DNA from: Alphaproteobacteria bacterium 43-37
Lineage (GTDB): Bacteria > Pseudomonadota > Alphaproteobacteria > 43-37
DNA length: 64,000 bases
Assembly (NCBI GenBank): GCA_001897475.1
Contig: MKSY01000026.1
Coordinates: 25,324 to 89,323, forward strand
Direction: 5' to 3'
The notes beneath the pieces were generated by a model. The model did no database searches, was not told the DNA's origin, and saw only the letters and a list, made by a program, of their open reading frames with translations. Positions 8,472 through 47,268 of this stretch are shown in pieces; the first letter of the stretch is position 1, and each line of letters opens with the position of its first letter. A program made the position numbers and the translations under genes.

Positions 8472-8619
8472 CTACCGCTGAATATCAACAATCAATTTAT
8501 TCCCAACCTAATTTGTTACCTAGGAGAAGAACTTGAAGGTGTCTAATTTCAAAGACCCTAGGGAAGTTATGGTGGGCGATGAGGGGATTGAACCCCCGAC
8601 CCTCTCGGTGTAAACGAGA
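8472..8619. repeat. attL: direct repeat of the attR region, including a 50-bp exact copy of the tRNA-Val 3' end (8570-8619)
   Basis: Positions 8570-8619 are identical to 47194-47243. About 95 bp of imperfect homology extend leftward (ctgaatatcaacaatcaatttattcc...ttgttacctaggagaa). Confidence 0.75.
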
Positions 8620-20773: not shown

Positions 20774-21184
20774 TTACCGTAACGTAGGTAAAAAAAGGTT
20801 GCCAGCTGAAAACACATGAAGGGCTCCAGCTGCTGCGGGTGCTGGGGCTGCTTTTGCTGCTGCCGCGGGTGGCGCAGCGCTGGCTCCTCCACTTAGCGCG
20901 GTGGTAGCCGCTGCGGCTTCTTTCTTTCCCGGCGCGCCTCCTGAACCTGAACTGGCTTTAGCTGCTGCAATTAATGGTTTATAAGAAGCAGCAAATTCCA
21001 AGCGCATATCATCCATTGACCGAAAATCTCTAATAAAACGATCGGGTTGGGCATGAGCTAACCCCGCATTCAAAATCAATCCTAACAACAATACATATCT
21101 CATTTTATCCATAAACCTAACTCTAGTAAAAATATTCATCATATTTACCTTATAATTATTTCCTCTGTTTTTTGCAATCAGCAA
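20774..21184 (-). CDS. Small secreted Ala-rich protein (an opposite-strand moron)
   Basis: It has a signal peptide (MRYVLLLGLILNAGLAHA) followed by an A/G/P-rich low-complexity tail. Confidence 0.45.
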   Translation of the reverse strand: MLIAKNRGNNYKVNMMNIFTRVRFMDKMRYVLLLGLILNAGLAHAQPDRFIRDFRSMDDMRLEFAASYKPLIAAAKASSGSGGAPGKKEAAAATTALSGGASAAPPAAAAKAAPAPAAAGALHVFSAGNLFLPTLR

Positions 21185-22147: not shown

Positions 22148-25100
22148 ATGGAACAACCAGTTCTTCCTCAAGCTTATGAACCACAAGATTTAACCCCATC
22201 TTCTGACTTAGAATCACCAAAACTCAAAGTACCGGATGCATTCATCCGCAAGCTTGAAACCGAAGAGCAAGAGCAAGGCATTCTTAGCCGTGCCCTGACT
22301 GATGTATCAGACTTTGCCTTCTCTTCTGAGGTGTTTAAAGCACCTGTGCATGGTATGGTGGAAGGGGTTAATCAGACGATCACAACCATTGAACATGCCT
22401 TAAAACCTGTGGTAGAAACCCCGGCACACTTATTAGCCCCTGAGTTTGAATTTGGACTTCCCCATCTTCCCAATGTGAACGCACCTCAAACTGTCACTGG
22501 CAACCTGGTCTCGGATGTAGCACAGTTTGCCCTTCCCTTTACCTGGGCCTTGAAAGGCATGAAAGCCCTCAATGTCCTCTCACGTGTGGCGCAAAAAGCT
22601 CCAGGAGCATTGACACCGAGTGTCCTAGCTGCAGGGGCAGGGTTTATTGCCGATAGCGTGGCCTTTGACCCTTATGAAGAGCGGCTGTGCAACCTTGTGG
22701 CTGATCATGGGCCGGAACTTACCAAACCAATTTTTGATGCCCTTAAGGCTGAAAGGCAAGATGGTGAGGTTGAAGCACGATTAAAGCGAGGGGTTGAAGG
22801 ACTTGCCTTAGGTGGCCTCACATCAGGGGTTATCAAGCTGGTGCAAAAGATGCGTTGGATTAAAACCCATAAGGAAAGAGTGGTTTCGAGCACAGGTGAG
22901 TCTTATGAGCCTGATCATGGTATACTTCAGGCTGCTAGTGACTTAAGCTACTGGTCAGGTCATCATCAAGATGAAACTTTGATCCACAAAACCATTTTGG
23001 AAACGGCTGGTTCTGCTAATCATTCGGATCATTTTGCTGCTTTAAGGGAACTAACCCAGCAGCATAATGCGCCAGTGATGAGCCCAGGTGTCAGTCAGAA
23101 TTTTATGACTCAAGCATCCGAGCGCTGGGTCAGTATCTTGCAATCTAAAGCTTGGGAGGAGTTGCCCGAGGCTGCCAAACAGGATTTGGAAAGTTTGTTC
23201 CTTAAAGGTGAGCAAGAGCATTGGCCTGAGTCGCTCAAACAAGCGATGGAAGCAAATCAACTTAAACGACAGGCTGCTACTGAAGTTAAGGTATCAACTA
23301 ATCTCGGGCAAGAGACCCTCAGTTTAGAAGCATCACCTATTACTCACAATGTAACTGCTGATTCAGGTGAAACCCTGTTATCCTTACAAACTCATCAGGT
23401 AAAAGCCTTTCAAGAAGCACTCTCAAATTTCGATGAAGAGAGGGCAAGCCGGGTCATTGGGCGTGGCATCAACTTTGATAACATTGCGTCATCGGATGAC
23501 ACCATCAAAGTGATGAAGACTCTTCAAGACCTCATGGCCGATGGCATCAATGAAGCTACAGGCAACGTGAGAACCTGGACGGATACCAACAAGATTGCAA
23601 CTATCATTGGTTCAAGCCCGGAGAACGTCACATCATCACTGAACACTTTGTTCAATAGCTCCAAACTGATGGACTCACAGCTAAGAGCATCCGGCATTTA
23701 TCTGCAAAGCCTTTTTGAAACGCTGCGTCGAGAAGCGGTCAAGATTGATCTTGGGGAAGCTGGAACCGAGCAGATAGCTAACTTTGTAAGACTGAAAACA
23801 CTCACGGGTGAAACCCTTAAAATGTACCAAGGAATTAAGTCCAACATCGCTCGGTCACTCAATACTCTCAAAATGCCCCTTTATGGTAAAGAGCTTTCCG
23901 AAAAACAGTTGACGGAAATCTTTGAAGCGCAAGGAGGCGTGACGAACATCCGAGCCTTGGCTAAAGCTTTTGCATCCTGCCCTTCCAATGAGGAGTTGGC
24001 AAAATTAGTCAAACCTTCGTTTTATGAAAAATCCAGAGACGCTGTGTTGGAATATTTTATGAACAGCGTCTTATCTGGCCCATCAACCCATGCCGTCAAC
24101 ATAATGTCCACAGCGGCCCACACACTTTGGCAACCCCTAGAGCGGTTTACGGCTGGCCTCATTATGGCCGATAAAGATATGCTTCTAGAGGGCACGTATC
24201 TCACCCGAGGTATTTTTGACAGTTTGAAGGATATTCTTCGTTGGACAGCTTTAGGCTCAAGCCGTCATGCGGATGAAACCTTCACTCACGCCAACCCACT
24301 TCAAGGCGCCGCAAAAGCCTTTATGGTGGATCGAAACCTCATCAACCAGCATGGTATTAATGACGTCAGCCGGCCCAAAGCCATCAGCGCAGAACGGTTT
24401 GGCTTTCTTCCAGCAGAATCGATCATGAAAGCATTGGAAGAAAACAATTATGCTGAAGCCATTCGCTCATCCATGATCCATGGGCTTGATTATCTGGGTA
24501 AAGCGATCAACTTGCCTGGACGGTTTCTCTTGGCCGAAGATGAGTTCTTCAAGATCATCAATTACAGATCATCGATCAGAGCTTTAGCTGCACGGGAAAC
24601 CAAACTGACTAGTCAGACGCTAGCCCCTGAGGCTGGCCAGAACATCGATGGGCTTTATGAATCAATCCTTGCCAACCCCAAACAATACGGCAACCTTCAT
24701 GAAAAAGCGCTTGCCTTTGCCGACGAGGTGAGTTTCACCACCCCACTCGCAGAAGGAACACTTTCCCATTCCCTCAACCAGATCGCCCATAAGCATCCTG
24801 GTTTAAGGTTCATCATTCCCTTTATCCGCACGCCGGCAAATATTCTGAAGTTTGCGCATCACCGGACACCTGGTCTTAATCTGCTCTCCAAGCAATATCG
24901 GCAGGAACTCACTTCCTCTGATCCGATGGTGCAAAAACAAGCGCTTGGCAAACTGTTTGGTGGATGGATTTTATGGGCGACGGCTTTTTCTTTGGCTGAG
25001 GATGGCGTCGTTACTGGTGGTGTTCCTAAAGGCAAAGGTGAAGCGCTGCGTAACACTGGCAGGTTGCCGTATTCCTTTGCATTTCAGCAAGAGGATGGAA

Positions 25101-25930
25101 CAACCAAATATGCGCAGTTTAGCCGCCTTGACCCCTTTGGGATGTTCTTTGGGCTGGCTGCTGATTTACACTACATCTTCCATGAATTGCCTCAAGGTGA
25201 ACAAGAGAATCTAGCCACAGCCTCACTTATTGCGATTTCGCAAAACATCAACACACGCGGGTATTTGGTTGGCCTTACCAATTTGCTCAACGCCTTAAGC
25301 GATGGAAACCGGTATGGCCAACGATTTGCGGCAAACTACCTCTCCAGCCTCGTTCCAAATGCCATCAAGCAGCATCGCAAGGGTGAAGATAATATTCAAC
25401 GACTGGCACCCAAAAACCCCTTTGAAGATTTAGAATCACTCATATCCTTTTACAAAAGCCAGCTGCCTGGATATTCGAAGGAACTGCCAGCTAGGTTGAA
25501 CTTGTTTGGGGAGGAAGTGAGTTACCCCAGCCTATTGGGCCAAGGGCTGCTAAAGGGGATTGCTACTTCAAAAAGTACCCAAGACCCCGTTGCAGAAGAG
25601 ATGTTCAGGCTTAAAATGTCAGGACGGCCCCCAATGGATGAGATTGAGGGCGTCACGCTTTCATCAGAGGAATATCACCATTATATCAAACTGTGCGCTA
25701 AGCCAAGTTCAAATATGAACCTAAAGAAGGTACTTGAAACCATCATGTCTTCAGCTAGTTACCAGCAGATGCCTGAAGGGGATGAGAATGTGGAAGGACA
25801 CAAGCAGCATGCCATCAAAAGCGTAATTCAGCTCTATCGAAAACTCGGTCAAGCCAAACTGCTGGAAAAGTATCCTAACCTGAATGCAAAGGTTTTGGAG
25901 CAGCGTAAGAAAAAGATAAGAGGCAATTGA
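22148..25930 (+). CDS. Internal virion protein D (gp16-like, ejection protein)
   Basis: It is 1260 aa, the largest gene, and sits at the position of T7 gp16 before the fiber genes. Confidence 0.6.
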   Translation: MEQPVLPQAYEPQDLTPSSDLESPKLKVPDAFIRKLETEEQEQGILSRALTDVSDFAFSSEVFKAPVHGMVEGVNQTITTIEHALKPVVETPAHLLAPEFEFGLPHLPNVNAPQTVTGNLVSDVAQFALPFTWALKGMKALNVLSRVAQKAPGALTPSVLAAGAGFIADSVAFDPYEERLCNLVADHGPELTKPIFDALKAERQDGEVEARLKRGVEGLALGGLTSGVIKLVQKMRWIKTHKERVVSSTGESYEPDHGILQAASDLSYWSGHHQDETLIHKTILETAGSANHSDHFAALRELTQQHNAPVMSPGVSQNFMTQASERWVSILQSKAWEELPEAAKQDLESLFLKGEQEHWPESLKQAMEANQLKRQAATEVKVSTNLGQETLSLEASPITHNVTADSGETLLSLQTHQVKAFQEALSNFDEERASRVIGRGINFDNIASSDDTIKVMKTLQDLMADGINEATGNVRTWTDTNKIATIIGSSPENVTSSLNTLFNSSKLMDSQLRASGIYLQSLFETLRREAVKIDLGEAGTEQIANFVRLKTLTGETLKMYQGIKSNIARSLNTLKMPLYGKELSEKQLTEIFEAQGGVTNIRALAKAFASCPSNEELAKLVKPSFYEKSRDAVLEYFMNSVLSGPSTHAVNIMSTAAHTLWQPLERFTAGLIMADKDMLLEGTYLTRGIFDSLKDILRWTALGSSRHADETFTHANPLQGAAKAFMVDRNLINQHGINDVSRPKAISAERFGFLPAESIMKALEENNYAEAIRSSMIHGLDYLGKAINLPGRFLLAEDEFFKIINYRSSIRALAARETKLTSQTLAPEAGQNIDGLYESILANPKQYGNLHEKALAFADEVSFTTPLAEGTLSHSLNQIAHKHPGLRFIIPFIRTPANILKFAHHRTPGLNLLSKQYRQELTSSDPMVQKQALGKLFGGWILWATAFSLAEDGVVTGGVPKGKGEALRNTGRLPYSFAFQQEDGTTKYAQFSRLDPFGMFFGLAADLHYIFHELPQGEQENLATASLIAISQNINTRGYLVGLTNLLNALSDGNRYGQRFAANYLSSLVPNAIKQHRKGEDNIQRLAPKNPFEDLESLISFYKSQLPGYSKELPARLNLFGEEVSYPSLLGQGLLKGIATSKSTQDPVAEEMFRLKMSGRPPMDEIEGVTLSSEEYHHYIKLCAKPSSNMNLKKVLETIMSSASYQQMPEGDENVEGHKQHAIKSVIQLYRKLGQAKLLEKYPNLNAKVLEQRKKKIRGN

Positions 25931-26040: not shown

Positions 26041-26319
26041 ATGATTAAGACGTTTAAGTGCAGAGAAACAGAAAAGCTATTTAACGACCAGATGGTTAAA
26101 GGTTTTAGGGCCTTTGAACGGCAGGCAAGAAGGAAGCTATTATTACTGCATGCTGCCAAAGGTTTGGAAGACCTCAAATCACCTCCTGGCAACCATTTGG
26201 AAAGCTTAAAAGGTGATCGTCAAAGCCAGTACAGCATTCGCATTAATAATCAATGGCGGCTGTGTTTTGAATGGACCGATAATAACGCTTATGAAGTAGA
26301 GATAGTTGATTATCATTAG
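26041..26319 (+). CDS. higB: HigB toxin (RelE/ParE superfamily, plasmid-killer type)
   Basis: It is 92 aa with the conserved C-terminal block WRLCFEWTDNNAYEVEIVDYH. Its stop abuts the start of higA. Confidence 0.8.
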   Translation: MIKTFKCRETEKLFNDQMVKGFRAFERQARRKLLLLHAAKGLEDLKSPPGNHLESLKGDRQSQYSIRINNQWRLCFEWTDNNAYEVEIVDYH

Positions 26320-26657
26320 TGAGAAGAGCCATGTCAGAACTTGATCTTATTACCCCTGGAGAAATTCTTCTTGAAGAGTTTATGAAACCAAATGACATTA
26401 GTCAGGCTCAAATGGCTAAGGACTTGAATATTCCCGTTTCGCGCATTAGGGGGGTTGTGCATGGTCGCTCTCACATTACGGCTGATTTAGCATTAAGGCT
26501 TGCCCGATATTTTGGAACAACAGCAGAATTATGGCTCAGTCTTCAAAACGAGTATGATGTGCGAAAAACCCAACGTGCTATTGGCAAGGATATCAAAAGA
26601 CAAGTCCAGCCGCTCGTAAAACATTTTACAAACAACCTATCTGAATCACATCGCTAA
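26319..26657 (+). CDS. higA: HigA antitoxin (XRE-family HTH)
   Basis: ITPGEILLEEFMKPNDISQAQMAKDLNIPVSRIRGVVHGRSHITADLALRLARYFGTTAELWLSLQNEYD is the typical HigA/VapI HTH. Confidence 0.8.
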   Translation: MRRAMSELDLITPGEILLEEFMKPNDISQAQMAKDLNIPVSRIRGVVHGRSHITADLALRLARYFGTTAELWLSLQNEYDVRKTQRAIGKDIKRQVQPLVKHFTNNLSESHR

Positions 26658-26692: not shown

Positions 26693-27400
26693 ATGAAAAC
26701 CATTACCTACACCTCCGATGGGGTGCAGCTTCTGTACCCTATCGGTTTTGTCTACAATACGCAGGATGTATTCACGGTTTATGTGGATGATAGTCTTGTG
26801 CCGTTTGAGAAGATTGATCATAACCACACGATCAGGCTTTTGGAAGCACCGGCCTTGAGCTCGCGCATTAAAATTGTGTGTGCAGCTTGTTTATCGAAAG
26901 CAGGTGATGAGGAAGAACAAGCCAACTTTAAGCTTCATCATAAGCAACAATTTGTACAACAACCTTCAACAACCATCCCAATTGATCAGCTCAAACAAAG
27001 CATCCTGTCTGATATTGAGCCTATTCTCAAAGACTTTAAAACCAGCAGCATCGAACTTCTAGCTCAGATGGATAAGCTCTATACCAAAACCATGCAGTCA
27101 GTTGAAAGCTGCCAGAAGCTAAAGGCAGAAATATTTCATGAAATGTCTTCCTTTCGGCAATCGATCCACCAACTAATCCAGGAAGGCGTTGGCAAACTTC
27201 AATATGATGCTTCGCGCATTGAGGGTGTCGCCAATCATGCGGTCAATGTAGCCAATCAGCGGTGGGGCGAAGTGAACTCACTGCAACAGTCTGTGCACTC
27301 CCTTCAATCTGAGGTTACAAGCCTTAAAGGGCAAATCAATTCTTTGAGCAACTCACTGAACCGACTAGAAAGTCGATCTTTTGGCGGTTCATCAAAATAA
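26693..27400 (+). CDS. Tail fiber-like protein 1 (T7 gp17 N-terminal domain plus coiled coil)
   Basis: The N-terminus (YTSDGVQLLYPIGFVYNTQDVFTVYVD) resembles the gp17 N-terminal tail-attachment domain. The C-terminus has a heptad coiled coil. Confidence 0.5.
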   Translation: MKTITYTSDGVQLLYPIGFVYNTQDVFTVYVDDSLVPFEKIDHNHTIRLLEAPALSSRIKIVCAACLSKAGDEEEQANFKLHHKQQFVQQPSTTIPIDQLKQSILSDIEPILKDFKTSSIELLAQMDKLYTKTMQSVESCQKLKAEIFHEMSSFRQSIHQLIQEGVGKLQYDASRIEGVANHAVNVANQRWGEVNSLQQSVHSLQSEVTSLKGQINSLSNSLNRLESRSFGGSSK

Positions 27401-29213: not shown

Positions 29214-29480
29214 ATGACAGAACCCACCACAAATAAAATCCTCCTGTTGCTAGGCAGGCTGGAGGGCAAAGTCGACTCCCTTTTGTCTAGCCAGTTAAGC
29301 ACGGAAGATACCATCAAAACCCATGACAAACGTCTCAGCAAACTGGAGAAAGCCCAAGCCTACTTAGCGGGGGCCTTGGCCCTTTGCTCTATCATTGCTT
29401 CTGGGGTGATCAAACATGTGAATTTAAAGCACATTGATGAACATCAAGAGGTTCGAATTAGAAGGGAGGAGCAACCATGA
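29214..29480 (+). CDS. Small hypothetical protein with a C-terminal transmembrane segment (gp17.5 holin position)
   Basis: It is 88 aa with one hydrophobic helix (LAGALALCSIIASGVI) and lies between the fiber and small terminase genes. Confidence 0.3.
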   Translation: MTEPTTNKILLLLGRLEGKVDSLLSSQLSTEDTIKTHDKRLSKLEKAQAYLAGALALCSIIASGVIKHVNLKHIDEHQEVRIRREEQP

Positions 29481-31404: not shown

Positions 31405-33348
31405 TTAAGACTTTTTGCCAGACCAACACCATTTTGCAAAATCAACTGCGGCCCAGAAAACCCCACCACGCCCACCTCCTGCAGCATCGCCTCCTTGACT
31501 CAATTCACCACCAAGACCAACACCTGTTCCTCCGGCTGCTGCTGCCGTACCTCCAGTTGATCCAACTGCAGCACCGGCCCCGGCTGAGGTAGAACCACCT
31601 TGCAACGTTGTTCCCCCTGCTCCAGTGACTGTGCTTCCTCCAGTAGCCACTGTTCCATAATTAAAGACTGCACCAGCCCCAGCAATTACCCCTGGCCGCC
31701 TTACAAAATAAATAATCGAACCAACAGCCGCAATTCCCACTACGGTACTAATGATTGGGCGCTCTAGAGCATAATGAACGGCACCATGGCCATAAGTTGT
31801 TAGTATATTTAAAATGCCGCCTTGCTGCACATTATCTCCCTGATTGATTAGCACCCTATTCCTTGCTCCAACACCTTCAACATTATGCGCACCTCTAGCT
31901 TCACCCCCATTTGCGGCTGCTGTTGCTTGTCCTGTTGAGGCTGCGCCCCTACTTGCCGCTCCTGCGCCGCCATGGGTGGCAATTGTGCCACCAGGGTAAG
32001 CGGTATGATGGTCTCCAGCTATGTTGTTGACAACATTATATTGAAAAGATTGGGCTGATCCTAGTGTTGGTGTGGCTGGCATTGACGCCGCGCCTGGAAC
32101 TGCACTGGTGGGTAACGTAGCCACGGAGAAGGATGATGCCACCGTATCAAATTCTGACCCTACGTCTCTTTCTGAGACTTCTAGTGTTTTTGCAGCTTCA
32201 GCAAGAATTGCTTGTACGGTTTTATAAGCATCTGATGAACTTGGAATACGGGATAGTAATTCCCTTAATACTGCCTGAGCCTCTTCTGCAAGTTCTGCGT
32301 TATGGCTAAATTTTTCCCAAGCAGACTTGAATGAATTAATGTCAATTCCATTTCCTCTTAGTTTAAGCCTATAAAGTCTCGCCCAAGCACCGTATTCGTT
32401 ATCCGGGTTCCTGCTTTTTACAATTTCATCTAAGTCCGCTAATGCCTCTTTGTGATCTGCATATTCGCCATTTCTATATGCAGCAATAAGTGCTCTTATG
32501 CTCGCATCTCTGTTAGCTATTTTTTCACGATCTCCTCCACTTGGTATTCTAATGTGTCCTAACCATGTGTCTCTTCTCTCTGTCAACCCCGGGGTTCCTG
32601 GCGCTGCTGCAGCGCCAACATCCACCGCTGTTGCTCTTCCTCTCCCGGTCTCGGCAGCTGATGCTGAGACAGGCTCAAACGCCCCCGTAGCTGGGTTAAG
32701 CCTGGTATGTAATGTTGGTAGTCCAGCTCCACCGCTTGCCCCTGCACCCCCTGCTGCTGCTAAGCCTGGCGCTGAGTCATCTTCTTCAACATCTGTTCGG
32801 GCAGGAACGCCTGGCTTGTTTGTTTTGGTAGCGAATGGTGTTGGTGATGCAGAAAAATAGGGATTACCCCTGCCAACTTTAATGCCATTAACAATATCAT
32901 ATGGGAGGTAAGAGGGCGTTGGGGAAGAAGCTGGGTAGAGTACTGCTATTTGTTCAAGAGTTAGCCTACCTTGCTCACCATCCACCCTTACTGGATAATT
33001 TCTTAGGCTTTCTATTCCATGAGTTGTTGTTTCATCAGCTCTTCTTGAAGGAGAAGCCGTTGCTGAGGGCATCATTGAAGGTTCAAACATGGGATTTACG
33101 TCAAACTGTATGGCTAATGGGCTTGGATTCGGAAGAGTAACAGTTCTTCCTCTTGGAAAAAACCCACCAAAGAACTCACCGGCTCCTGAAGGCTGGGCAC
33201 AGACATTCTTAGTTGGGAATGATGAAAGAATGGTGGTCAAAGCCAAAGCTTTAGCCAAAAGGAGTTTTGTTCCTTTACCTAACGTATTGCTGATATTCAT
33301 AAAAACCTCCAAGAGTGCATGAATATTTGTAACTATTATGTGATTCAT
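31405..33348 (-). CDS. Large Gly/Ala-rich protein predicted to be secreted, with a C-terminal TM helix and a poly-Gly tail
   Basis: It has an N-terminal signal peptide (LLAKALALTTILSSF), a TM helix (ISTVVGIAAVGSIIYFV) and a C-terminal G/A/T low-complexity tail. It is on the minus strand, convergent with the terminase. Confidence 0.5.
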   Translation of the reverse strand: MNHIIVTNIHALLEVFMNISNTLGKGTKLLLAKALALTTILSSFPTKNVCAQPSGAGEFFGGFFPRGRTVTLPNPSPLAIQFDVNPMFEPSMMPSATASPSRRADETTTHGIESLRNYPVRVDGEQGRLTLEQIAVLYPASSPTPSYLPYDIVNGIKVGRGNPYFSASPTPFATKTNKPGVPARTDVEEDDSAPGLAAAGGAGASGGAGLPTLHTRLNPATGAFEPVSASAAETGRGRATAVDVGAAAAPGTPGLTERRDTWLGHIRIPSGGDREKIANRDASIRALIAAYRNGEYADHKEALADLDEIVKSRNPDNEYGAWARLYRLKLRGNGIDINSFKSAWEKFSHNAELAEEAQAVLRELLSRIPSSSDAYKTVQAILAEAAKTLEVSERDVGSEFDTVASSFSVATLPTSAVPGAASMPATPTLGSAQSFQYNVVNNIAGDHHTAYPGGTIATHGGAGAASRGAASTGQATAAANGGEARGAHNVEGVGARNRVLINQGDNVQQGGILNILTTYGHGAVHYALERPIISTVVGIAAVGSIIYFVRRPGVIAGAGAVFNYGTVATGGSTVTGAGGTTLQGGSTSAGAGAAVGSTGGTAAAAGGTGVGLGGELSQGGDAAGGGRGGVFWAAVDFAKWCWSGKKS

Positions 33349-33621: not shown

Positions 33622-34218
33622 TCATAGCAGATCGATGAGTGCACGTTGGGCGTCGGTGTTAGCATCAATGTAGCGCTGGGTCATGGAAAGGGACGCATGA
33701 CCTGCCAGCAGCTGTACGTCTCTCAGGCTTCCTCCTACTGTCGACACCTTCCTAGCCGCATTGGTGATGAATGTTCTGCGCCCAGAATGGCTGGAGCAGC
33801 CGATGAGGCCAAGAGCTGCATACACCTTTTTGAACCAATGGACTACGTTGCAGGTGTGCATTTTACAGCCATGCTTACTAAAGATGATGTGTTTATGAGG
33901 CTCTGGTGAATGGTGCGCCTTCCTTACAACCATTCTTAAAATGATAAGTGCATCTTTCAACTGTGGATGCAGAGGAATAATCCGTCCTGACTTGCCCTTG
34001 CTGGCAGAGGATGGCAGGTGGATGTGGTTACTGATGTTCCCATCAGGATCAAGCACCATGGCCCAGGTTAGCTCAGCAATTTCCTTGGCTCGTAAACCTG
34101 CTTTAAAGGAAAGCAGCACCATTACCATATTACGCTCAGGATAGGTTAAGGCTGATACGTGATAAAGTATCCTCTCCATGTCTTTTGTTCTTAAAACTTT
34201 TGCTTGTCTACCAATCAT
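33622..34218 (-). CDS. Tyrosine recombinase, catalytic domain only (198 aa)
   Basis: It has the catalytic R (LRAKE), HSGRRTF (HxxR), LAGHASLSMTQRY (H and Y) and lacks an N-terminal core-binding domain. Confidence 0.7.
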   Translation of the reverse strand: MIGRQAKVLRTKDMERILYHVSALTYPERNMVMVLLSFKAGLRAKEIAELTWAMVLDPDGNISNHIHLPSSASKGKSGRIIPLHPQLKDALIILRMVVRKAHHSPEPHKHIIFSKHGCKMHTCNVVHWFKKVYAALGLIGCSSHSGRRTFITNAARKVSTVGGSLRDVQLLAGHASLSMTQRYIDANTDAQRALIDLL

Positions 34219-34752
34219 TTAATGCACTCATTTCAGCGGTTACTCACTACTTTTATGTGCAAATCTATGCTTGATTTTTAAAGATGGCCCTTGAATAGGG
34301 CTTCAACCTTCACTTGCACAATAAATTAATCTTTCATGTTCAACAGATGCTATGTGAGCATTGTTCAGGGCAAAAATCAAGTCTGCCGCCAACTCAACCC
34401 GTTGGTTTTGCTGGAGTTTTAGTCCATCCAAGTCAGTGTGTTGCCTTAAAAATTTTGAAGTTTGTCACTTTAACAAAAGCCGGGATTTTATAATGGAGTA
34501 TTTGTAGCTGGTAAATGGTCAGTGCATTGTGGATTGAACATTGATCAAATGAAACTGTAATATGTTGATTCAATATGATGTTTTAAGGCTTATGTCAACA
34601 TAATGATCAATTATGCATCATAATCCCTATATTTTGACCCCTGAATGGCCTTTGGGATATTGGGTGGCCCAAAAGCTCCAGAAATAGATAAAACGTATCA
34701 GTGAGCAGATTTTGGGCATTTATGACGATGTTGCTGTTTTTGTTATCTTTTC

Positions 34753-35793
34753 TCATAAAGCCTTCTTAATTAAACCAACCAAAGTCTTCATGGCTTGATC
34801 ATGAATAACGTTCTTATGGCAGTGTAGGTAAACATCAGCCGTGCCAACAGGCTCGTTCATAACCTTGACGAGTTGACTTCTATGGATCAGATCAGGCGGG
34901 TAAAGGGCAATGCCAACACCTACTTCACATAGCTTGAGCGCCATGTAGGAATGATTCACCTCTGTGATGTTTTCGGGTGGGATGTTTCCAAACCCAGCCA
35001 TCCAGTTGGCATCAAAAGTTGTATTGCCACTCACTCGTGTCACAATGATGGAATGGTTTGTTAAGTCAGCTGAAGAAAGGCTGCCAAACTTCTTCATATA
35101 TTCTGGACTTGCAAAAAGATAGCTTTGGTAGGTTTTTAAATGGATGGCTTCAAAGCCTCTGGAGATTTGATCAATGGGCCAGATGATGACGTCTGCTTCT
35201 TTAAACTTCTTATCCGGCAGAGCTGATAGCGTGTAAATGCATAGCTGAATCTGGGGGAATGCATCTTTAAACTGTTTCAGCACTTTGGGAAACACAGATA
35301 TGCCAAGAGGCAGTGTGGTGAATATTTTTATCTGATGGATGTTTGTTTTATCGGTTGCATCATTATAAGTGTCCCACTGCAACTTTGAAAAAATCTCATT
35401 GACCATTTGATAAACTTTGTCTCCTGAAGTCGTCAGCTCATACCCACGTGGTTCTCGATCAAATAGCAAAACCCTAAGAATATCTTCGAGCTTTTGAATA
35501 TTATAAGTTACCGCAGAAGGGGACATTTTTAGGTTCTTTGCGGCTAATCTACGGGTTTTGTAATAAACGCAGGCATGAAAGACTTTGAGCTGCAAAATGT
35601 TGGCACAGAGGAGGGTTTCATTTAAATGATTCTCACAAGATACGTTTTCTTGTCTTTTCCTTAGATGTGAAACTTTGGGAGTTCTAGGCTTTTTTCTTTT
35701 AGTGATTTGAAGTGATCGTTTCTGTGTCACGGTTTTAGCCTCTTTCTTGAAAACTAAACTCAAAAATTGCTCTGCCACAAATATACCGATCAA
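34753..35793 (-). CDS. LysR-family transcriptional regulator with an N-terminal Lys/Arg-rich extension
   Basis: It has an HTH (LQLKVFHACVYYKTRRLAAKNLKMSPSAVTYNIQKLE) and a LysR substrate-binding domain. It is divergent from the RNAP gene. About 60 aa of basic leader (KRKKPRTPKVSHLRKRQ) precede the HTH. Confidence 0.8.
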   Translation of the reverse strand: MIGIFVAEQFLSLVFKKEAKTVTQKRSLQITKRKKPRTPKVSHLRKRQENVSCENHLNETLLCANILQLKVFHACVYYKTRRLAAKNLKMSPSAVTYNIQKLEDILRVLLFDREPRGYELTTSGDKVYQMVNEIFSKLQWDTYNDATDKTNIHQIKIFTTLPLGISVFPKVLKQFKDAFPQIQLCIYTLSALPDKKFKEADVIIWPIDQISRGFEAIHLKTYQSYLFASPEYMKKFGSLSSADLTNHSIIVTRVSGNTTFDANWMAGFGNIPPENITEVNHSYMALKLCEVGVGIALYPPDLIHRSQLVKVMNEPVGTADVYLHCHKNVIHDQAMKTLVGLIKKAL

Positions 35794-35953
35794 TATTTAA
35801 TATTTGCCTAAAACAGGCCGTATGGCTTCAACATAGGAGGAGTCAACTTTTCTGCCCTCAAAAAACATTTGCGTCAACATAAGCCCAAATGATATATGCC
35901 CAATTTGTATTCAACTATAAAAACTGTAACCACATACAAATAGGGAACTTATC

Positions 35954-38440
35954 ATGGACTCTACTTTTACTGAAGGCAGTGTTGAGACCAATCTCAATGC
36001 CAGCCTTGAATCAAACGTTAATAGCAACGTCAATCCCCACTTTGAAGAAACATTTGTTCAACAGGGCAAAGAGCGCTTTGCCGTATCCCACCAAAAAGCC
36101 ATAAGAAAAGGTTCTTACTCGGTTACGCAGGTTGGGCGCATCCTCCTTCCGCCCGCCATTGAACCACTTAAAGAAGCTGTGATCGATTTTGTCACCACAG
36201 CGATGACTGGCCAGGCCACCACCATGGCAACAGCAGCCCTTTATCTTAAAAACCTAGCTCCTGAAGTTGTGTCATTGATCGCTTGTCGTTGCATCATCGA
36301 TAAGCTCACGCAGCCCATCTCTTTCACACGTCTTGCCAGCATCATTGGCAAAGCGATTCAGGATGAATTGATCATGGAAGCTTTCAGCGAACAAAATAGA
36401 AGGCTATACGATACTATCGCTTTAGAGAACTTGAAGAAGATTTCCAACACCTTTGTGCGCCGCTCTATGATGCGCAAGCAAGCCGCTCACTATGAAATTG
36501 TCTCACCAGAGATGGATCAATCCACCTGCATTCTTGTGGGAGCCAAGCTTATTGAACTGTTTTGTGAGGTCACTGGGTTTATCGAAATCTTCATTCAGAT
36601 TCGAAGTGGCCGGGAATACCGCATGGTGCATCCCACGGCTAAGGTCTTAGAGTCCATTGATCAGCTTTACGATCAGTTATCTGGAAGGTTCCCAGCTTTT
36701 GGCCCTATCATCAAAAAGCCCAAAGATTGGAAAAGCTTTCATGAAGGAGGATTCCATACGTTACGCCAAAAGTTTGTGCGCACCTTTTCCAAAGAGCATG
36801 CGAAGATGCTTAAACATCATGCCATGCCAAAGGTGTATGAAGCCGTCAACCATTTGCAGGCAACACCCTATGCCATTAACAAGCAAGTCTTGGAAGTGGC
36901 TCAATACATTTGGGATCGAAGAGAAAACTTTGGCGAATTGCCCTTTGCGGGGCTGCCTGAAAGGTATGTTTATGAGATACACGGCCAACCAACTGGATTT
37001 GATGAGGGTTCTCTTGCTAAGCATAAATACAATGAAAGCATAAAAAGTCAGAACCTTGAGGTCAAATTTATTCTTAAAACAGCCCATAGCTACAAGGATG
37101 AAAGGCAATTATACTTTGTCCATAACACAGACTTTCGAGGAAGGGTTTATCCTGTTACTAGTTACCTGTCCCCACAAGGCAATGATTTGAATCGCGGCAT
37201 ACTCACTTTTTCTGAATCTCAAGCAAAACCTTTGGGTAAATCAGGGCTAATCTGGCTCAAGATTCATGCAGCCAACTGTTGGGGCAAAGATAAAGACTCA
37301 TTGGATGAACGCATCAATTGGAGCAGTGATAACCTTGAGCGCATTATTCGAGTAGCTGAAGACCCGTATGCTGATTACTGGTGGGAAGAAGCGGACAAAC
37401 CGTTTCAGTTCTTGGCTGTTTGTTATGAGTTTTTAAAGCTGATGGTGGAATGGGATGATTACAAATGCGCCCTTCCCATCACAGTGGATGGATCAAACAA
37501 CGCCCTGCAACACTTCAGTGCTCTTCTCTTAGACGAGAGGCTCGGAAGGGCAACCAACATGCTCCCTCCTGAGTCAGATGGTGAAAAGCCAAAGGACTTT
37601 TACCAAGAAGTTTGTGATGCAGCCACTCACCTGATCACCATAGATGCCGCTCATGGGAAGCCAGAAGCTAAAGCTTGGGTAAAAGCCATTAACCGCAAGA
37701 TAGTGAAGTCTCCAGTTATGACCTACTATTACGGCGTCACATTCAAAGGAATGGAAGATCAGATTGATGAGGTTTTGGGAAATCAAATCGATGAAAGCTT
37801 GAAAGATCAAGCGTTAACAGTTCATGGGGATCGTAAAAAGAGTATTCAGTACCTTGTCTGGTTGTTAAAACGAATCATTCCTCAAAAGGCACCATCCGTG
37901 GAAAGCTGTATGCAGCTTTTGAAGTGCGCCACACGGCATCTTGCTAAGCAAAATAAATCCACTACATGGCTAACACCTTCTGGGTTTAAGGTTGTCCAAG
38001 ATAATCGAATAAAAACAAAGATGCAGATAAAAACTAAATTGTTTGGAACTCAGAACTTCTGGATGAGGTTCGATGCTGAGCCCAATAACGAAGATAAGGC
38101 TGATATTAAACGACAAGCCAATGGTATTACAGCCAACTTTATTCACTCTTTGGATGCTGCTGCCTTAACCCTGTGCATCTTGGAAGCTAAAAAACACAAC
38201 ATCACAGCCATTCGAACCATTCATGATAGCTTGTCTGTGGTTCCAGGTGATATGGAAGTTTTAAGCCAGCTGATTCGAAAAAGTTTTCAGCAGATGTATC
38301 AGGATAAAAACTTGCTCAAGGATTTTCTAACCCAAACATTGGACAAGGAAACAGCTGAAACCTTTTGGAAAGAAGCCAATATTAGCCTTGGGCTTCTTGA
38401 TCTCAGTCAACTGAAAAAAGCCACATACTTTTTTGCTTAA
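35954..38440 (+). CDS. Single-subunit DNA-directed RNA polymerase, T7 gene 1-like
   Basis: VDGSNNALQHFSALLLDE (T7 DGSCSGIQHFSAMLRDE), NFIHSLDAAAL (T7 NFVHSQDGSHL), IHDSLSVVP (T7 IHDSFGTIP) and the C-terminus ...YFFA (T7 ...FAFA). Confidence 0.92.
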   Translation: MDSTFTEGSVETNLNASLESNVNSNVNPHFEETFVQQGKERFAVSHQKAIRKGSYSVTQVGRILLPPAIEPLKEAVIDFVTTAMTGQATTMATAALYLKNLAPEVVSLIACRCIIDKLTQPISFTRLASIIGKAIQDELIMEAFSEQNRRLYDTIALENLKKISNTFVRRSMMRKQAAHYEIVSPEMDQSTCILVGAKLIELFCEVTGFIEIFIQIRSGREYRMVHPTAKVLESIDQLYDQLSGRFPAFGPIIKKPKDWKSFHEGGFHTLRQKFVRTFSKEHAKMLKHHAMPKVYEAVNHLQATPYAINKQVLEVAQYIWDRRENFGELPFAGLPERYVYEIHGQPTGFDEGSLAKHKYNESIKSQNLEVKFILKTAHSYKDERQLYFVHNTDFRGRVYPVTSYLSPQGNDLNRGILTFSESQAKPLGKSGLIWLKIHAANCWGKDKDSLDERINWSSDNLERIIRVAEDPYADYWWEEADKPFQFLAVCYEFLKLMVEWDDYKCALPITVDGSNNALQHFSALLLDERLGRATNMLPPESDGEKPKDFYQEVCDAATHLITIDAAHGKPEAKAWVKAINRKIVKSPVMTYYYGVTFKGMEDQIDEVLGNQIDESLKDQALTVHGDRKKSIQYLVWLLKRIIPQKAPSVESCMQLLKCATRHLAKQNKSTTWLTPSGFKVVQDNRIKTKMQIKTKLFGTQNFWMRFDAEPNNEDKADIKRQANGITANFIHSLDAAALTLCILEAKKHNITAIRTIHDSLSVVPGDMEVLSQLIRKSFQQMYQDKNLLKDFLTQTLDKETAETFWKEANISLGLLDLSQLKKATYFFA

Positions 38441-38642
38441 ATGAGTGTGAGGATGAAGAAAAAGAATAACGCAATTTACAAAAAGGAATATTCATAAAAT
38501 TTTATACAGAAAGTTTGCGTATTGGAGAAATCAATCATCTCTTGTTTTAGGTTAATCACAACTAAGAACAAATAATGATCCACAGTGACATCCTATATAA
38601 TATATATTAATAAACTATAGTATTTTATAATAACTTAAATGA

Positions 38643-38690
38643 ACTTAAGGCAGCTTAAAAAACAAATGAAGGCTGCCTTAAGTTATTTTT
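38643..38690 (+). terminator. Rho-independent terminator-like hairpin downstream of the RNAP gene
   Basis: A 13-bp perfect stem (aacttaaggcagc / gctgccttaagtt) is followed by ATTTTT. Confidence 0.45.
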
Positions 38691-38770
38691 AAAGAGCCTT
38701 AAGAAACTTAAAGCACATATAAGCTTCTTCTTTCATCATCTTCATCAACATATCTTACTTTCCAAAGTCT

Positions 38771-38940
38771 GCTCAAGCCCGAGCCGCCCAGGCGGGAGGC
38801 AGGGCGAGGGCTGCAAGCAGCCACAGACGACACAAAGAAAGGAAAGACACAAAAGAAAGTGTCATCTCATCTCTTCCAAGAGCAATCGTCGTGTCGCACT
38901 GCGAGGCAGTTGCTGCCAAGGCAGGAGATAGAACAAAGAA
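38771..38940. other. GC-rich structured block inside the 650-bp noncoding region between the RNAP and SSB genes (candidate ori, promoter cluster or ncRNA)
   Basis: gctcaagcccgagccgcccaggcgggaggcagggcgagggctgcaagcagcc... has short palindromes (ggctgcaagcagcc). It is flanked by very AT-rich DNA (tatataatatatattaataaactatag). Confidence 0.3.
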
Positions 38941-39093
38941 TCATTCATCATACCTAATGTTTTCTTAAGGAAAGGAAGCATCATGACAAACTCATCATAA
39001 AAAGGCTCTGTCAAGAGCCGCCCCTTAATTCATCATAATGAACCATAATTCATTTAATGCCTTCATTTCTTTTACTCAAAGGACACACATCCC

Positions 39094-41776: not shown

Positions 41777-42298
41777 ATGCAAAATTTAAATACAACTTCT
41801 GATTTTGAGCTCAATAATCGTTCTGGTCGTGGCATTCAAGATAATACTCGTCCATTAAAGCATTTTAAGTCGATCCGTAACAAAAAGTTTGGTTTTTCTC
41901 TTGATGCGATGACGGATGATGAAGGAACGGTTTGGTTTGTTTTTGATGTCGTTTGCTACTATCTGGGATTATCGACTTTAAAGAACCCTAAAGAGACTCT
42001 TAATGAAGCTCAAACACGTGTCGTTACAACGGGTATATATGGGGGCTGGAAGCCAATCACTCTTGTCAGTGAGCCTGGAGTTTATCATCTGGCTTTAAGA
42101 AGCCATAAACCAAGCGCCGAACGATTCTATGAATGGGTCTTTGAGGACGCACTACCTTCTATTCGCAAAGCAAGCATTGATGCTTTACTGGCTCAAATTA
42201 ATGCATTCAATGAAGAGATCAGAGAAACTAAGGAATTGCTGCGAGCTCGTCATGAGGAGCTGATCTTCTGCAAATTCGGTGCAGATTACATTTGTTAA
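41777..42298 (+). CDS. Bro-N domain protein
   Basis: WFVFDVVCYYLGL...GVYHLALRSHKPSAERFYEWVFEDALPSIRK is a Bro-N (antirepressor N-terminal) signature. Confidence 0.65.
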   Translation: MQNLNTTSDFELNNRSGRGIQDNTRPLKHFKSIRNKKFGFSLDAMTDDEGTVWFVFDVVCYYLGLSTLKNPKETLNEAQTRVVTTGIYGGWKPITLVSEPGVYHLALRSHKPSAERFYEWVFEDALPSIRKASIDALLAQINAFNEEIRETKELLRARHEELIFCKFGADYIC

Positions 42299-42328
42299 AA
42301 ATGACTCACTTGTAGCTGAAAGGTTACC

Positions 42329-42619
42329 ATGCCTGATCATACACCAAATGTAAGTTTCCTTGAGAATGTGCAAAGCACCCTTGAGGATCGCAAAAACCAG
42401 TATGGTACAGCTGAAGAGCTGTTTACCCATATTGCCAAACGGTGGAGCCTGACGCTTAGTCAGGCCATCACGCCTGCTCAGGTTGCCATCTGCATGATGG
42501 ACTTGAAGATGGCCAGGCTTGCCCATGATCCTAAACACCATGACAGCCTTATGGACATTGTGGGATATGCCAACTGCCTGGCTGACCTTAAAGCATCAGG
42601 GAAAGCTTTTACTCCCTAA
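42329..42619 (+). CDS. Hypothetical protein
   Basis: The 96-aa ORF lies between the two Bro-N genes. No motif recognised. Confidence 0.35.
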   Translation: MPDHTPNVSFLENVQSTLEDRKNQYGTAEELFTHIAKRWSLTLSQAITPAQVAICMMDLKMARLAHDPKHHDSLMDIVGYANCLADLKASGKAFTP

Positions 42620-42661
42620 CTTAGGCCCATACCGCATACCTCTGGGCAATATATTTTTCTA

Positions 42662-43525
42662 ATGAAGCACTCAAATAAGGATTTAAAACTTATGACTATT
42701 CTAAATTTTCCTGGCACCAGCGCCACTAACACCCATGCCAATTCTTCCTCTAATAGCACCGCCTCAGCTTTACAAACCTTTCTTTTTGAAGATCAAAATG
42801 TCCGCATTGCCCTTGATGATAAAGGTGAGCCTTGGTTTGTGGCTGCAGATGTTTGCAGGATTCTAAATCTCCAAGATCATAAGTCGGCATTAAGGCCTCT
42901 AGAAGAAGATGAAAGGGGGGTAAAAACTTTCCTATCCCATGGAGGGCCTCAAAAATACTCCATTATTAATGAATCAGGCCTTTATTGGCTTATCTTTAGA
43001 AGCACCAAGCCTGATGCCAAACGCTTCCGTATTTGGGTTACCAATGAAGTCTTGCCATCCATTCGCAAGACTGGCAGCTATAGTGTGCATAATAAAATTC
43101 CAGACTTTACCAAAATCCCAGAAACATACGAAGAGCTGATGTTCCACCATCAATATGTTGTTGGAGCTTGTATAAAGCTGCAAAAGGAAAACGAGGTTAT
43201 TAAGCCCAAAGCGTTATTTTATGACAATTATAAAGATGTGAAGGGAAATCACCCCCTGCGTGCCTTAGGTAAACTCTTTCATCTTCCGCCCAATGGGCTT
43301 ATTAAACAGCTGATTGAGGATGGATTCTTATATCGGTGTGGTAAGTCGCTCATGGCCAAGCAAACCTTTGTCCAGAAGAAGTGGTTTGAGACCAAGCTGG
43401 TCATTGATTATCATGGAAGACCTAAAACACAAACGGTTGTTACGCCCAAAGGTGTTTTAGGATTAGCTGAGCGCTACGGTTTCATGAATGACTCTGATTC
43501 CAACGATGACTACTTAATCAATTGA
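42662..43525 (+). CDS. Bro-N domain plus KilA-C/ANT-like C-terminal domain protein
   Basis: It has a second Bro-N block (WFVAADVCRILNL...GLYWLIFRSTKPDAKRFRIWVTNEVLPSIRK). The C-terminal 150 aa resemble antirepressor C-domains. Confidence 0.65.
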   Translation: MKHSNKDLKLMTILNFPGTSATNTHANSSSNSTASALQTFLFEDQNVRIALDDKGEPWFVAADVCRILNLQDHKSALRPLEEDERGVKTFLSHGGPQKYSIINESGLYWLIFRSTKPDAKRFRIWVTNEVLPSIRKTGSYSVHNKIPDFTKIPETYEELMFHHQYVVGACIKLQKENEVIKPKALFYDNYKDVKGNHPLRALGKLFHLPPNGLIKQLIEDGFLYRCGKSLMAKQTFVQKKWFETKLVIDYHGRPKTQTVVTPKGVLGLAERYGFMNDSDSNDDYLIN

Positions 43526-43557
43526 CATCGTTTGGCTATTTGAAAGGCTTAAGAGCA

Positions 43558-43589
43558 AAGGGGGAGCAAACTTTGCCCCCCCTTTAAGT
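43558..43589 (+). terminator. Hairpin (GGGGGAGCA..TGCCCCCC) between the Bro genes and the DNA polymerase gene
   Basis: An imperfect GC stem is followed by a weak T-tract. It may be a terminator or an RNase III-type processing site. Confidence 0.3.
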
Positions 43590-43623
43590 TCATCAAAAAC
43601 AATTTAATAAATGGAGCAAGTTC

Positions 43624-46241: not shown

Positions 46242-46640
46242 ATGACTCAATTACTCACGCCTAAAGCTGTGGCGAATCAATACAGCATCAGCCTCAGCAC
46301 TCTTTACAAACAGCGAACCTTAAACACAGGCATTCCTTATACCAAGGATGCGGATGGAAACACATACTATAACCGCAAGGATGTAGAAGCCTGGCTTGCC
46401 AACCATTGGAACCCACGAGTGAACAAAAAGGCCCGTACATACATCAATCCTGATGTGGTTCATTTTGTGACGCCTAAATACATTGCCAAAACCTATAATC
46501 TGTGTGAGCAAACCTTGGCCAGGCTTAGGCAGCTGGGCAAAGGAATGAGGTTTGTGAGCCTCAGAGGGCAAGATTATTACATCAAAGAGCAATGGGAGAC
46601 GTTTTACCGGGGCCGAAACGTCAATGTGAACTGGAATTGA
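46242..46640 (+). CDS. Tandem-HTH excisionase/AlpA-like DNA-binding protein
   Basis: It has two repeats of the motif LLTPKAVANQYSISLSTLYKQ...GIPYTKD / FVTPKYIAKTYNLCEQTLARLRQLGKGMRFV, which is the excisionase-type (MerR-like) HTH. Confidence 0.5.
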   Translation: MTQLLTPKAVANQYSISLSTLYKQRTLNTGIPYTKDADGNTYYNRKDVEAWLANHWNPRVNKKARTYINPDVVHFVTPKYIAKTYNLCEQTLARLRQLGKGMRFVSLRGQDYYIKEQWETFYRGRNVNVNWN

Positions 46641-46653
46641 GGAGGCATAAACA

Positions 46654-46932
46654 ATGACTCAACACTATGCCTACACAAAAGACAACAAAGCCACCCGCCT
46701 TATGGGCGAACAAGAGGTAGCCAAGATGCTGAATGTCAGCCCAGGCACACTAAGAAATCAACGTTCCAAAAAGATCGGCTTACCGTATGTGAAGATTGGA
46801 AAGAAGGTTCAATATAGGTATTCAGATATCGAGGATTTTATTGAGAAAAACATTCGCCTGATCACAAAAGATCACTCAATCGGTGCAGCAATTAAAATAG
46901 GACTGGAAAATGACAAAAATATTGCTAACTGA
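46654..46932 (+). CDS. Excisionase-family HTH protein
   Basis: QEVAKMLNVSPGTLRNQRSKKIGLPYVKIGKKVQYRYSDIEDFI is paralogous to the neighbouring genes. Confidence 0.5.
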   Translation: MTQHYAYTKDNKATRLMGEQEVAKMLNVSPGTLRNQRSKKIGLPYVKIGKKVQYRYSDIEDFIEKNIRLITKDHSIGAAIKIGLENDKNIAN

Positions 46933-47119
46933 AAAGCAGGTTTCAGAATTATACAATGTAAGCGTTGGAACTCTGCGCTCTCAAAGAGTAACCGGCAAAG
47001 GAATGCCCTTTGTTAAGTTTGGAGGTAAAATCCTTTATAGGACTGAAGATATTGAAAAATATATTCAGGGTAGACTTTTTAACTCTACCACTGAATATCG
47101 ACAATCAATTTATTCCTAA
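46910..47119 (+). CDS. Excisionase-family HTH protein (candidate recombination directionality factor)
   Basis: KQVSELYNVSVGTLRSQRVTGKGMPFVKFGGKILYRTEDIEKYI. Its 3' end lies inside the att-flanking repeat, and a relic copy of this 3' end is at 8478-8505. Confidence 0.5.
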   Translation: MTKILLTEKQVSELYNVSVGTLRSQRVTGKGMPFVKFGGKILYRTEDIEKYIQGRLFNSTTEYRQSIYS

Positions 47120-47243
47120 TCTAACTTGTTACCTATATGTTACCTAGGAGAAAAATCCAGAAGTTGCTAACTTCAAAAACCCTAGGGAAACTATGGTGGG
47201 CGATGAGGGGATTGAACCCCCGACCCTCTCGGTGTAAACGAGA
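47086..47243. repeat. attR: direct repeat partner of 8472-8619, overlapping the 3' 50 nt of tRNA-Val
   Basis: Positions 47194-47243 are identical to 8570-8619. The upstream imperfect homology contains the TTGTTACCTA tandem at 47127-47148. Confidence 0.75.
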
Positions 47244-47268
47244 CGCTCTCCCGCTGAGCTAATCGCCC
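47194..47268 (-). tRNA. tRNA-Val (anticodon TAC)
   Basis: The reverse complement reads GGGCGATTAGCTCAGCGGGAGAGCGTCTCGTTTACACCGAGAGGGTCGGGGGTTCAATCCCCTCATCGCCCACCA. It has a 7-bp acceptor stem, a TTTACAC anticodon loop, a TTCAATC T-loop and CCA. Confidence 0.85.

Follow-up and report, generated by a model that had tools for sequence, protein, structure and literature searches.

T7-like phages were until recently regarded as strictly lytic. In the temperate T7-like phages Pasto (Agrobacterium), HTVC019P (a pelagiphage) and LUZ100 (Pseudomonas), a MarR-like regulator and an integrase lie upstream of the gene for the single-subunit RNA polymerase (RNAP), and the MarR-like regulator has been proposed to repress RNAP expression during lysogeny (PMC10134795, citing Boeckman et al. 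2022). How such phages silence their RNAP is so far a matter of hypothesis, put forward for MarR-type regulators. Here we describe a related arrangement in a stretch of 64,000 nucleotides from Alphaproteobacteria bacterium 43-37 (GCA_001897475.1, contig MKSY01000026.1, positions 25,324 to 89,323), which we call the window and within which all positions are given. It contains a T7-like prophage in which a LysR-family regulator is transcribed divergently from the T7-type RNAP gene. We suggest that this LysR protein probably controls the RNAP gene and possibly acts as the prophage's own switch between lysis and lysogeny.

Like the MarR-module phages as that source presents them, the prophage is T7-like, carries an integrase and has a regulator other than CI just upstream of a single-subunit RNAP. 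It differs from them in regulator family and in layout. The window regulator is a LysR protein with an HTH_1 and a ligand-binding domain, whereas the published regulator is of the MarR family; no MarR match was found in the prophage open reading frames (ORFs) scanned against Pfam and PHROGs, namely the sizeable ORFs, none below 45 aa, with the exception of the two largest structural ORFs (14770-17142 and 22148-25930) and of the 591-aa ORF 18986-20761. The window LysR gene is divergent from RNAP, whereas the published MarR-like regulator is co-directional with the integrase, and in the window the integrase is found with attP between exonuclease and portal, whereas the published integrase lies upstream of RNAP. 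The sequence-only reading, which was made before any database search, regarded a LysR protein gating RNAP expression as an unconventional way of maintaining lysogeny. That wording is too strong, because control of RNAP by a non-CI, MarR-type regulator has already been proposed for temperate T7-like phages (PMC10134795) and a regulator gating RNAP is the working model there. What is new here is a LysR-family, ligand-binding regulator in the repressor slot; the arrangement itself was already known.

The Pfam domains and the strands of the two genes confirm that LysR diverges from a phage T7-type RNAP, as first read from the sequence, and both genes lie inside the att-bounded prophage. The LysR ORF contains a LysR-type helix-turn-helix (HTH; PF00126, E 2.5e-13, ORF residues 68-124) and a full-length substrate/effector-binding domain (PF03466, E 7.7e-17, profile positions 7-207 of 209), and the nearest solved match to the protein is a LysR family regulator (PDB 9hh1_A, E 5e-19). 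No named LysR subfamily fits, as the top NCBIfam score (GcvA, 82.6 bits) lies under its cut-off of 288 and the others are under theirs as well. An AlphaFold2 model of LysR, built on a two-sequence alignment, had a mean pLDDT of 36.5 and was unusable. The RNAP translation, read by eye, shows the polymerase motifs VDGSNNALQHFSA and IHDSLS and a C-terminal FFA, and the gene is apparently intact. With T7-type replication and virion modules, a single-subunit RNAP, an integrase and tRNA att sites, the element is a temperate T7-like (Autographiviridae-type) prophage. Its genome is opened at attP between exonuclease and portal, which places the junction of terminase and RNAP in the interior and makes LysR a gene of the phage, not of the flanking host DNA.

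The lineage consists of three prophage variants, namely the one in the window, L005 and L002 (GCA_017308305.1, JAFKFD010000068.1; re-sampled as L003, L004, L011 and L016). RNAP-based scans of genome, metagenome and viral contig collections returned only re-samplings of the L002 lineage and distant T7-like loci, and only P0004 (88%) and P0005 (81%) are close to the window RNAP, the next relative being 47% identical. All three variants have the order small recombinase (-), LysR (-), RNAP (+), followed by the same replication genes. Whichever two of the three are compared, identity is 76-94% for most shared genes. LysR, in comparison, is only 33-34% identical to its counterpart in L005, while the genes adjacent to it are 84-93% identical. 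The antirepressor ANT behaves in the same way, with 42-43% identity to L005 and 84% between the window and L002, which carry the same LysR type (80% identical over the core). At the DNA level, the blastn alignment of the window with L005 runs to 34739 and resumes at 36036, with nothing between, and similarity is lost a second time over the Bro-N/ANT genes (41817-42324 and 42612-43592). The replaced unit consists of LysR, the intergenic DNA and the first ~80 nt of the RNAP gene; in L005 the corresponding control region is at 4073-4279 and ANT at 10157-11326. A regulator exchanged as one unit with its control DNA, and a matching antirepressor, make up the pattern of phage immunity regions, seen here in one swap event. 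The third HTH_17 gene is divergent as well, in every pair of prophages (52-57%).

Within the LysR type shared by the window and L002, the DNA between the two genes is strongly kept. Positions 35794-35953 are 90.6% identical, as against 65% at the flanking third codon positions of LysR and 54% at those of RNAP, so the control DNA is under strong constraint.

The lambdoid immunity regions (imm-lambda, imm434, imm21, and immC with Ant in P22) offer a close parallel to this exchange. There too, repressor and control DNA are replaced as a cassette, the antirepressor changes as well, and the regulator is transcribed divergently from the gene with which lytic growth begins. Unlike the lambdoid regions, the window has no detected HTH_3/Peptidase_S24 repressor or Cro-like partner, and the adjacent gene is a phage RNAP in place of N/Cro-type early genes. 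A repressor of the lambdoid kind does occupy the same slot in L010, a more distant T7-like locus (ENA ERZ16268156 scaffold_14, 343 kb; RNAP 29% identical), where an HTH_3+Peptidase_S24 gene lies between terminase and RNAP. As in the window, the regulator is on the strand opposite RNAP and a small tyrosine recombinase is nearby; the order of terminase and then RNAP is seen in both. The L010 regulator is CI-like with an SOS-cleavable S24 domain, whereas the window LysR belongs to another family and lacks S24.

The swapped unit also bears on a different view, namely that LysR is part of an accessory (moron) module, that its targets are host genes or the minus-strand genes which follow it (49-aa ORF, recombinase and cargo), and that its adjacency to RNAP is incidental. 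LysR does share the orientation of these minus-strand genes, and the scan showed no terminator-like site behind it. The genes carried between terminase and recombinase, however, change from prophage to prophage, whereas LysR keeps its place beside RNAP in all three, and the unit that was swapped takes in the RNAP-proximal intergenic DNA and the 5' end of RNAP but neither the recombinase nor the 49-aa ORF. The GC content of the region, 0.396, is the lowest inside the prophage, which fits acquired DNA, the deposited phage genomes searched contain next to no LysR-like genes, and the nearest relatives sit beside host tRNA genes (P0099) or in a chromosome (P0101). Against this stands the RNAP-facing intergenic DNA, which is the most conserved stretch locally. 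We consider an accessory role unlikely.

A LysR-type regulator typically acts on its own gene and on the neighbor transcribed divergently from it. The classical divergent regulators of the family (GcvA, DsdC, IlvY, CbnR/BenM) share both the two-domain architecture and the divergent arrangement with the window gene. The window LysR departs from them in its extra basic arm of ~45 aa, in being phage-encoded, and in having a T7-type RNAP as its putative target. In the explanation that we favor, the host RNA polymerase would transcribe LysR from the minus strand, and the LysR protein would bind the 223-bp control region common to both genes, autoregulating and holding the RNAP gene off in the lysogen. 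Without RNAP, the replication and virion genes would stay silent. The Bro-N/KilAC antirepressor that co-varies with LysR, a ligand bound by the effector domain of LysR, or both could provide the escape, and a 5' hairpin hiding the ribosome-binding site of RNAP would be an added lock against read-through transcripts. The binding to DNA, the repression, and its relief by antirepressor or ligand are steps that we infer. The conserved synteny, the cassette swap, the intergenic constraint and the S24 repressor in the L010 slot lend indirect, comparative support to the proposal that LysR gates RNAP in place of CI, while no LysR box or promoter was identified to go with it. We think it probable that LysR directly controls the RNAP gene, whether by repression or by activation. 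That it is the prophage's lysis/lysogeny switch in the manner just described is a good possibility that falls somewhat short of probable.

Several points weigh against this favored explanation. The control region has no match to a sigma-70 promoter at 9/12 or better on either strand; the promoter and terminator scan returned nothing there, and its overall counts were no higher than in shuffles. The check for a T-N11-A LysR box found a single weak one (35801-35813, 4 of 6 symmetric pairs) where 2.7 are expected by chance; this check is not diagnostic. No motif was significantly enriched among k-mers of the control region after multiple-testing correction; ATTTG/CAAAT occurs in 6 copies, but its per-word p of ~0.001 becomes a family-wise P of 0.15. 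Among classical LysR regulators, activation of the divergent target is more common than its repression. With three prophage variants and two LysR alleles, the co-variation of LysR and ANT rests on a single swap event. No LysR gene was found near RNAP in nine more distant T7-like loci (L006, L008-L010, L012-L015 and L017). The closest homologue outside the lineage, P0099, has no RNAP gene on its upstream side, so the LysR clade is not strictly tied to RNAP. Several prophage ORFs and the three HTH_17 proteins are without an assigned function, and the host is an uncultured organism represented by a metagenome-assembled genome (MAG).

The lack of a sigma-70-like promoter upstream of RNAP is what would be expected if the gene were activator-dependent. 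LysR might then activate an intrinsically weak RNAP promoter upon binding a small-molecule co-inducer, with a host metabolite setting the choice between lysis and lysogeny or the induction. Most LysR regulators activate the divergent gene upon co-inducer binding, both LysR domains are full length here, the effector-binding domain included, and no S24 autoprotease domain was found in the prophage, hence there is no obvious link to the SOS response. The synteny, the cassette and the constraint fit activation as well as they fit repression. A pure activator, on the other hand, would leave stable silencing and superinfection immunity unexplained, as well as the change of the antirepressor allele together with LysR, and no activation-type layout of sites was identified in the control region. 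Activation of this kind seems to us an unlikely way for LysR to act on RNAP.

Returning to LysR as a repressor of RNAP, the control region offers a few candidate sites. The inverted-repeat scan found a dyad, CAAATATA-N13-TAATATTTG, that recurs in L002 with one spacer base changed and that could be an operator; nested in it is a second dyad, CAATATT-T-AATATTT (35791-35805). A 40-nt block further toward RNAP is a candidate regulator or promoter site, being identical in the window and L002. Next to RNAP, an inverted repeat with 22-nt arms would, in transcripts that start upstream of it, pair as RNA with the Shine-Dalgarno sequence and the AUG of the RNAP gene. The predicted fold has -18.3 kcal/mol (z -3.9; none of 200 shuffles was as stable). 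For L002, too, a hairpin is predicted, though a weaker one (z -1.6) whose pairing is altered. IS10 is known for fold-back inhibition of translation, and the hairpin might similarly be a second lock against read-through translation of RNAP. No repeated phage-promoter consensus above the level of shuffles was found across the intergenic regions.

The DNA-binding or regulatory proteins found in the scanned ORFs are LysR, HigA, three HTH_17 excisionase-like proteins and two Bro-N/ANT proteins. HigA (26319-26657), beside HigB, is the only HTH_3/XRE protein among them, as the sequence-only reading had noted. Its further statement that the prophage has no CI-like repressor holds in so far as Pfam and PHROGs detected no CI, Cro or S24-type protein in these ORFs either; eight ORFs, however, gave no function-assigning family match (10033-10380, 13706-14164, 17643-18236(-), 20774-21184(-), 26693-27400, 29214-29480, 31405-33348(-) and 34607-34756(-)). 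It is therefore conceivable that lysogeny is kept by an unrecognized factor, such as the product of an unannotated ORF, an HTH_17 protein, a small RNA encoded in the stretches free of ORFs, or the RBS-sequestering hairpin combined with a weak promoter, and that LysR has a minor role at most. The eight ORFs leave room for such a factor, as do the 132-aa HTH_17 protein, which is 92% conserved in all pairs of prophages, the hairpin over the Shine-Dalgarno sequence and AUG of RNAP, which is far more stable than shuffles, and a 650-bp ORF-free gap after the RNAP gene. The HTH_17 genes, though, stand at the end of the plus-strand middle block beside attR, the usual place of an excisionase, and Rfam yields tRNA alone. 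None of these candidates shows the allele-swap pattern of LysR, and an unrecognized keeper of lysogeny appears to us distinctly unlikely.

One of the eight ORFs deserves separate mention. The 197-aa ORF 17643-18236(-) runs antisense in the late operon, with an N-terminus resembling a transmembrane segment and, judged by eye, some likeness to a winged helix in its C-terminal part. It was rejected as a hidden repressor of that type, having no Pfam or PDB match and no homologue in the relatives. A search of 5.8 billion sequences returned no homologue but itself; such an orphan is ruled out as a regulator conserved across the lineage.

The start of LysR affects both the protein and the control region. 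The LysR ORF as called mechanically (34753-35793, minus strand) extends to a TTG at 35793, merely the first possible start. GTG at 35730 is most likely the true start, giving a protein of 325 aa. This codon is kept in the window and in L002, with GAGG (AAGG in L002) 8 nt upstream, and the N-terminus reads MTQKRS; the ATG-initiated homologue P0099 begins MTQKDT and has a K-rich leader of 43 aa. P0100, the LysR of L005, has ~26 residues, K-rich, ahead of the HTH and no nearer start codon. The annotated lengths of homologues vary with the gene caller (300, 311, 325 or 341 aa). A start at 35730 makes the leader ~45 aa long instead of 60 and extends the control region to 35731-35953 (223 bp) from 160 bp.

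The sequence-only reading had described a Lys/Arg-rich leader of 60 aa that resembles a bipartite nuclear localization signal (NLS). The basic leader is there, at the shorter length, and the N-terminal extension is probably real and translated. Its substitutions between the window and L002 fall on the three codon positions without bias (9/7/10; dN/dS 0.42, dS 0.35), in contrast to the LysR core (39/18/102; dN/dS 0.135, dS 0.82). The leader is thus weakly constrained as a protein, and its DNA may bear an extra constraint. The NLS finds no support, as the leader is shorter than proposed and resembles the basic N-terminal arm common to a small LysR clade. We regard an NLS as unlikely, because a regulator that binds DNA in the cytoplasm has no need of one and basic N-terminal arms are a frequent device for contacting DNA. 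A disordered basic arm that contacts DNA would be the simpler reading of the leader.

That clade is small. In an exhaustive HMMER search of 1.84 billion representatives, only P0099 (34% identity) and P0100 were found at E <=1e-30, below which the scores fall to ordinary LysR regulators of ~300 aa. P0099 (L018:5546-7216) lies ~500 nt from tRNA-Glu and tRNA-Lys genes with host genes near, on a contig that ends 500 nt downstream, and may stand at the edge of another integrated element. P0101 is a chromosomal LysR gene with hemB, tldD and cox genes as neighbors. A LysR clade native to the host lineage is the probable source of the phage LysR. When 50,697 phage records were searched with the LysR core as a protein query, 11 records matched, at least 8 of which look bacterial by record length and organism name; two of the others are odd, one match lying at the extreme end of its record and the other in a 2.2-kb unannotated fragment. 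A DNA search of the same records with the LysR region gave no match. A LysR-like PHROG, phrog_3736, does exist. OxyR is reportedly a LysR-family regulator linked to activation of the phage Pf4. That case concerns a host regulator gene and a filamentous phage, whereas the LysR gene of the window belongs to the phage and has been kept along with it. The title of one report names Pf4 activation by oxidative stress (PMC12395586).

Table 1. Features of the prophage and of the LysR-RNAP junction (positions in the window)
Feature	Position	Strand	Basis or remark
LysR-family regulator, probable coding sequence, 325 aa	34753..35730	-	HTH_1 and LysR_substrate (Pfam); phrog_3736, E 6e-38
Lys/Arg-rich N-terminal leader, ~45 aa, ahead of HTH	35596..35730	-	Open and indel-free in L002; K-rich leaders in P0099 and P0100
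Divergent control region	35731..35953		LysR start to RNAP start, 223 bp
Candidate operator dyad CAAATATA-N13-TAATATTTG	35778..35806		Inverted-repeat scan; 8-nt arms, 13-nt gap, one mismatch
40-nt block, two GTCAAC repeats and dyad TTTTCTG-CCCT-CAAAAAA	35842..35881		Identical in window and L002
Inverted repeat, 22-nt arms 35889-35910 and 35934-35955	35889..35955	+	Arms 82% complementary
T7-type single-subunit RNAP, 828 aa	35954..38440	+	PF00940, E 9e-88; PF14700
Swapped cassette: LysR, control region and first ~80 nt of RNAP gene	34740..36035		blastn, window against L005
Bro-N, DUF6378, Bro-N/KilAC antirepressor (ANT 42662-43525)	41777..43525	+	Pfam; PHROG anti-repressor Ant, E 5e-60
49-aa ORF	34607..34756	-	Overlaps LysR stop codon by 4 nt; called as a gene in L001; without family match
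Small tyrosine recombinase, 198 aa, catalytic domain only	33622..34218	-	PF00589, E 3e-20; phrog_216; downstream of LysR
Variable cargo slot, here a 647-aa low-complexity protein	31405..33348	-	No family match
attL	8472..8619		Repeat of tRNA-Val 3' region; direct repeat families D1 and D3
Integrase, full-length, 397 aa	8774..9967	+	PF00589, PF13356, PF22022; arm-binding domain; adjoins attL
Three tandem HTH_17 (excisionase/AlpA-like) genes	46242..47119	+	Pfam HTH_17; phrog_66 'excisionase and transcriptional regulator'; adjoin attR
attR with tRNA-Val	47085..47268		tRNA-Val 47194-47268, minus strand; right-hand repeat 47085-47243 overlaps tRNA-Val

The prophage spans 38.6 kb between direct repeats (8472-8619 and 47085-47243), and tRNA was the sole family matched in the Rfam scan. 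Among the flanking host genes, a patatin-like phospholipase lies well to the left and Lon protease directly to the right. From attL, the integrase is followed by portal, scaffold, capsid, tail tube, gp13/gp14-like genes, a holin-like gene, lysozyme, a 1260-aa ORF in the gp16 position (not scanned), HigB/HigA, tail fiber, and the small and large terminase. Then come the minus-strand trio of low-complexity protein, recombinase and LysR, and on the plus strand RNAP, SSB, endonuclease I, primase-helicase, Bro-N, DUF6378, the Bro-N/KilAC antirepressor, DNA polymerase, exonuclease, the three HTH_17 genes and attR. Relative to T7 the order is permuted, with attP, the integrase and the HTH_17 genes between the exonuclease and portal genes. 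All recognizable modules are uninterrupted, and by this measure the prophage is apparently intact. The HigB/HigA toxin-antitoxin pair (26041-26657) lies in the late region, between the 1260-aa ORF and the tail-fiber genes. Outside the prophage, ~1.2 kb to the left of attL, positions 7217-7281 are a copy of the 3' end of the capsid gene (13537-13601; 65 nt, 94% identical), possibly left behind by a related prophage that once occupied the same site. A gene for a Panacea-domain (SocA-like) antitoxin (7443-7931) is near this copy. ORF 6315-7115 was considered as a capsid remnant and rejected for want of similarity.

Among the minus-strand neighbors of LysR, the 49-aa ORF has a central peptide, INAQNLLTDTFYLFLE, that is recognizable in both L002 and L005, though the LysR of L005 is swapped. 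The small recombinase is the second tyrosine recombinase of the prophage and of the size of FimB/FimE, with catalytic residues recognizable by eye. Its identity among the three prophages is 86-88%, and dN/dS values of 0.02-0.06 indicate strong purifying selection. Invertible DNA for it was sought and rejected: the long-range inverted repeats of the window and L002 have no common cores or positions and are thus at chance level. The 647-aa cargo protein is Gly/Ala-rich with a signal-peptide-like N-terminus. In L002 the cargo slot (L002:1522-7443) holds ABC transporter, HlyD-like and AAA-ATPase-like genes and a 159-aa ORF, of which the ABC transporter and the HlyD-like gene possibly form a type I secretion system; in L005 it holds a 573-aa gene (L005:1-1719). 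The ORF-free gap after RNAP (38441-39093) contains a very AT-rich stretch (~38590-38650), a hairpin (~38643-38683) and a GC-rich structured segment (38770-38830, 91% conserved in L002), and has no Rfam match. In position it matches the primary replication origin and promoter region of T7. The RNAP genes of the window (J0G29_02450) and of L002 (J0G29_02150, 81% identical) occur with the same MAG locus-tag prefix. One assembly therefore has two related T7-like prophages of the same LysR type, from a polylysogen or a strain mixture.

Regulators of several families can thus occupy the slot upstream of RNAP in temperate T7-like phages: MarR in published phages, CI/S24 in L010 and LysR in the lineage of the window. 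LysR is the largest family of bacterial regulators. Since LysR proteins bind small molecules, the switch of this prophage could be gated by a metabolite. A more specific version, in which a ligand-sensing LysR with an added basic arm was recruited as the switch on the RNAP promoter, so that a small molecule and not the SOS response decides lysis and the matched antirepressor commits the phage to it, seems to us rather doubtful. LysR, its control region and the single-subunit RNAP together would make a compact, possibly ligand-controlled orthogonal expression module, and its two natural alleles allow tests of specificity.

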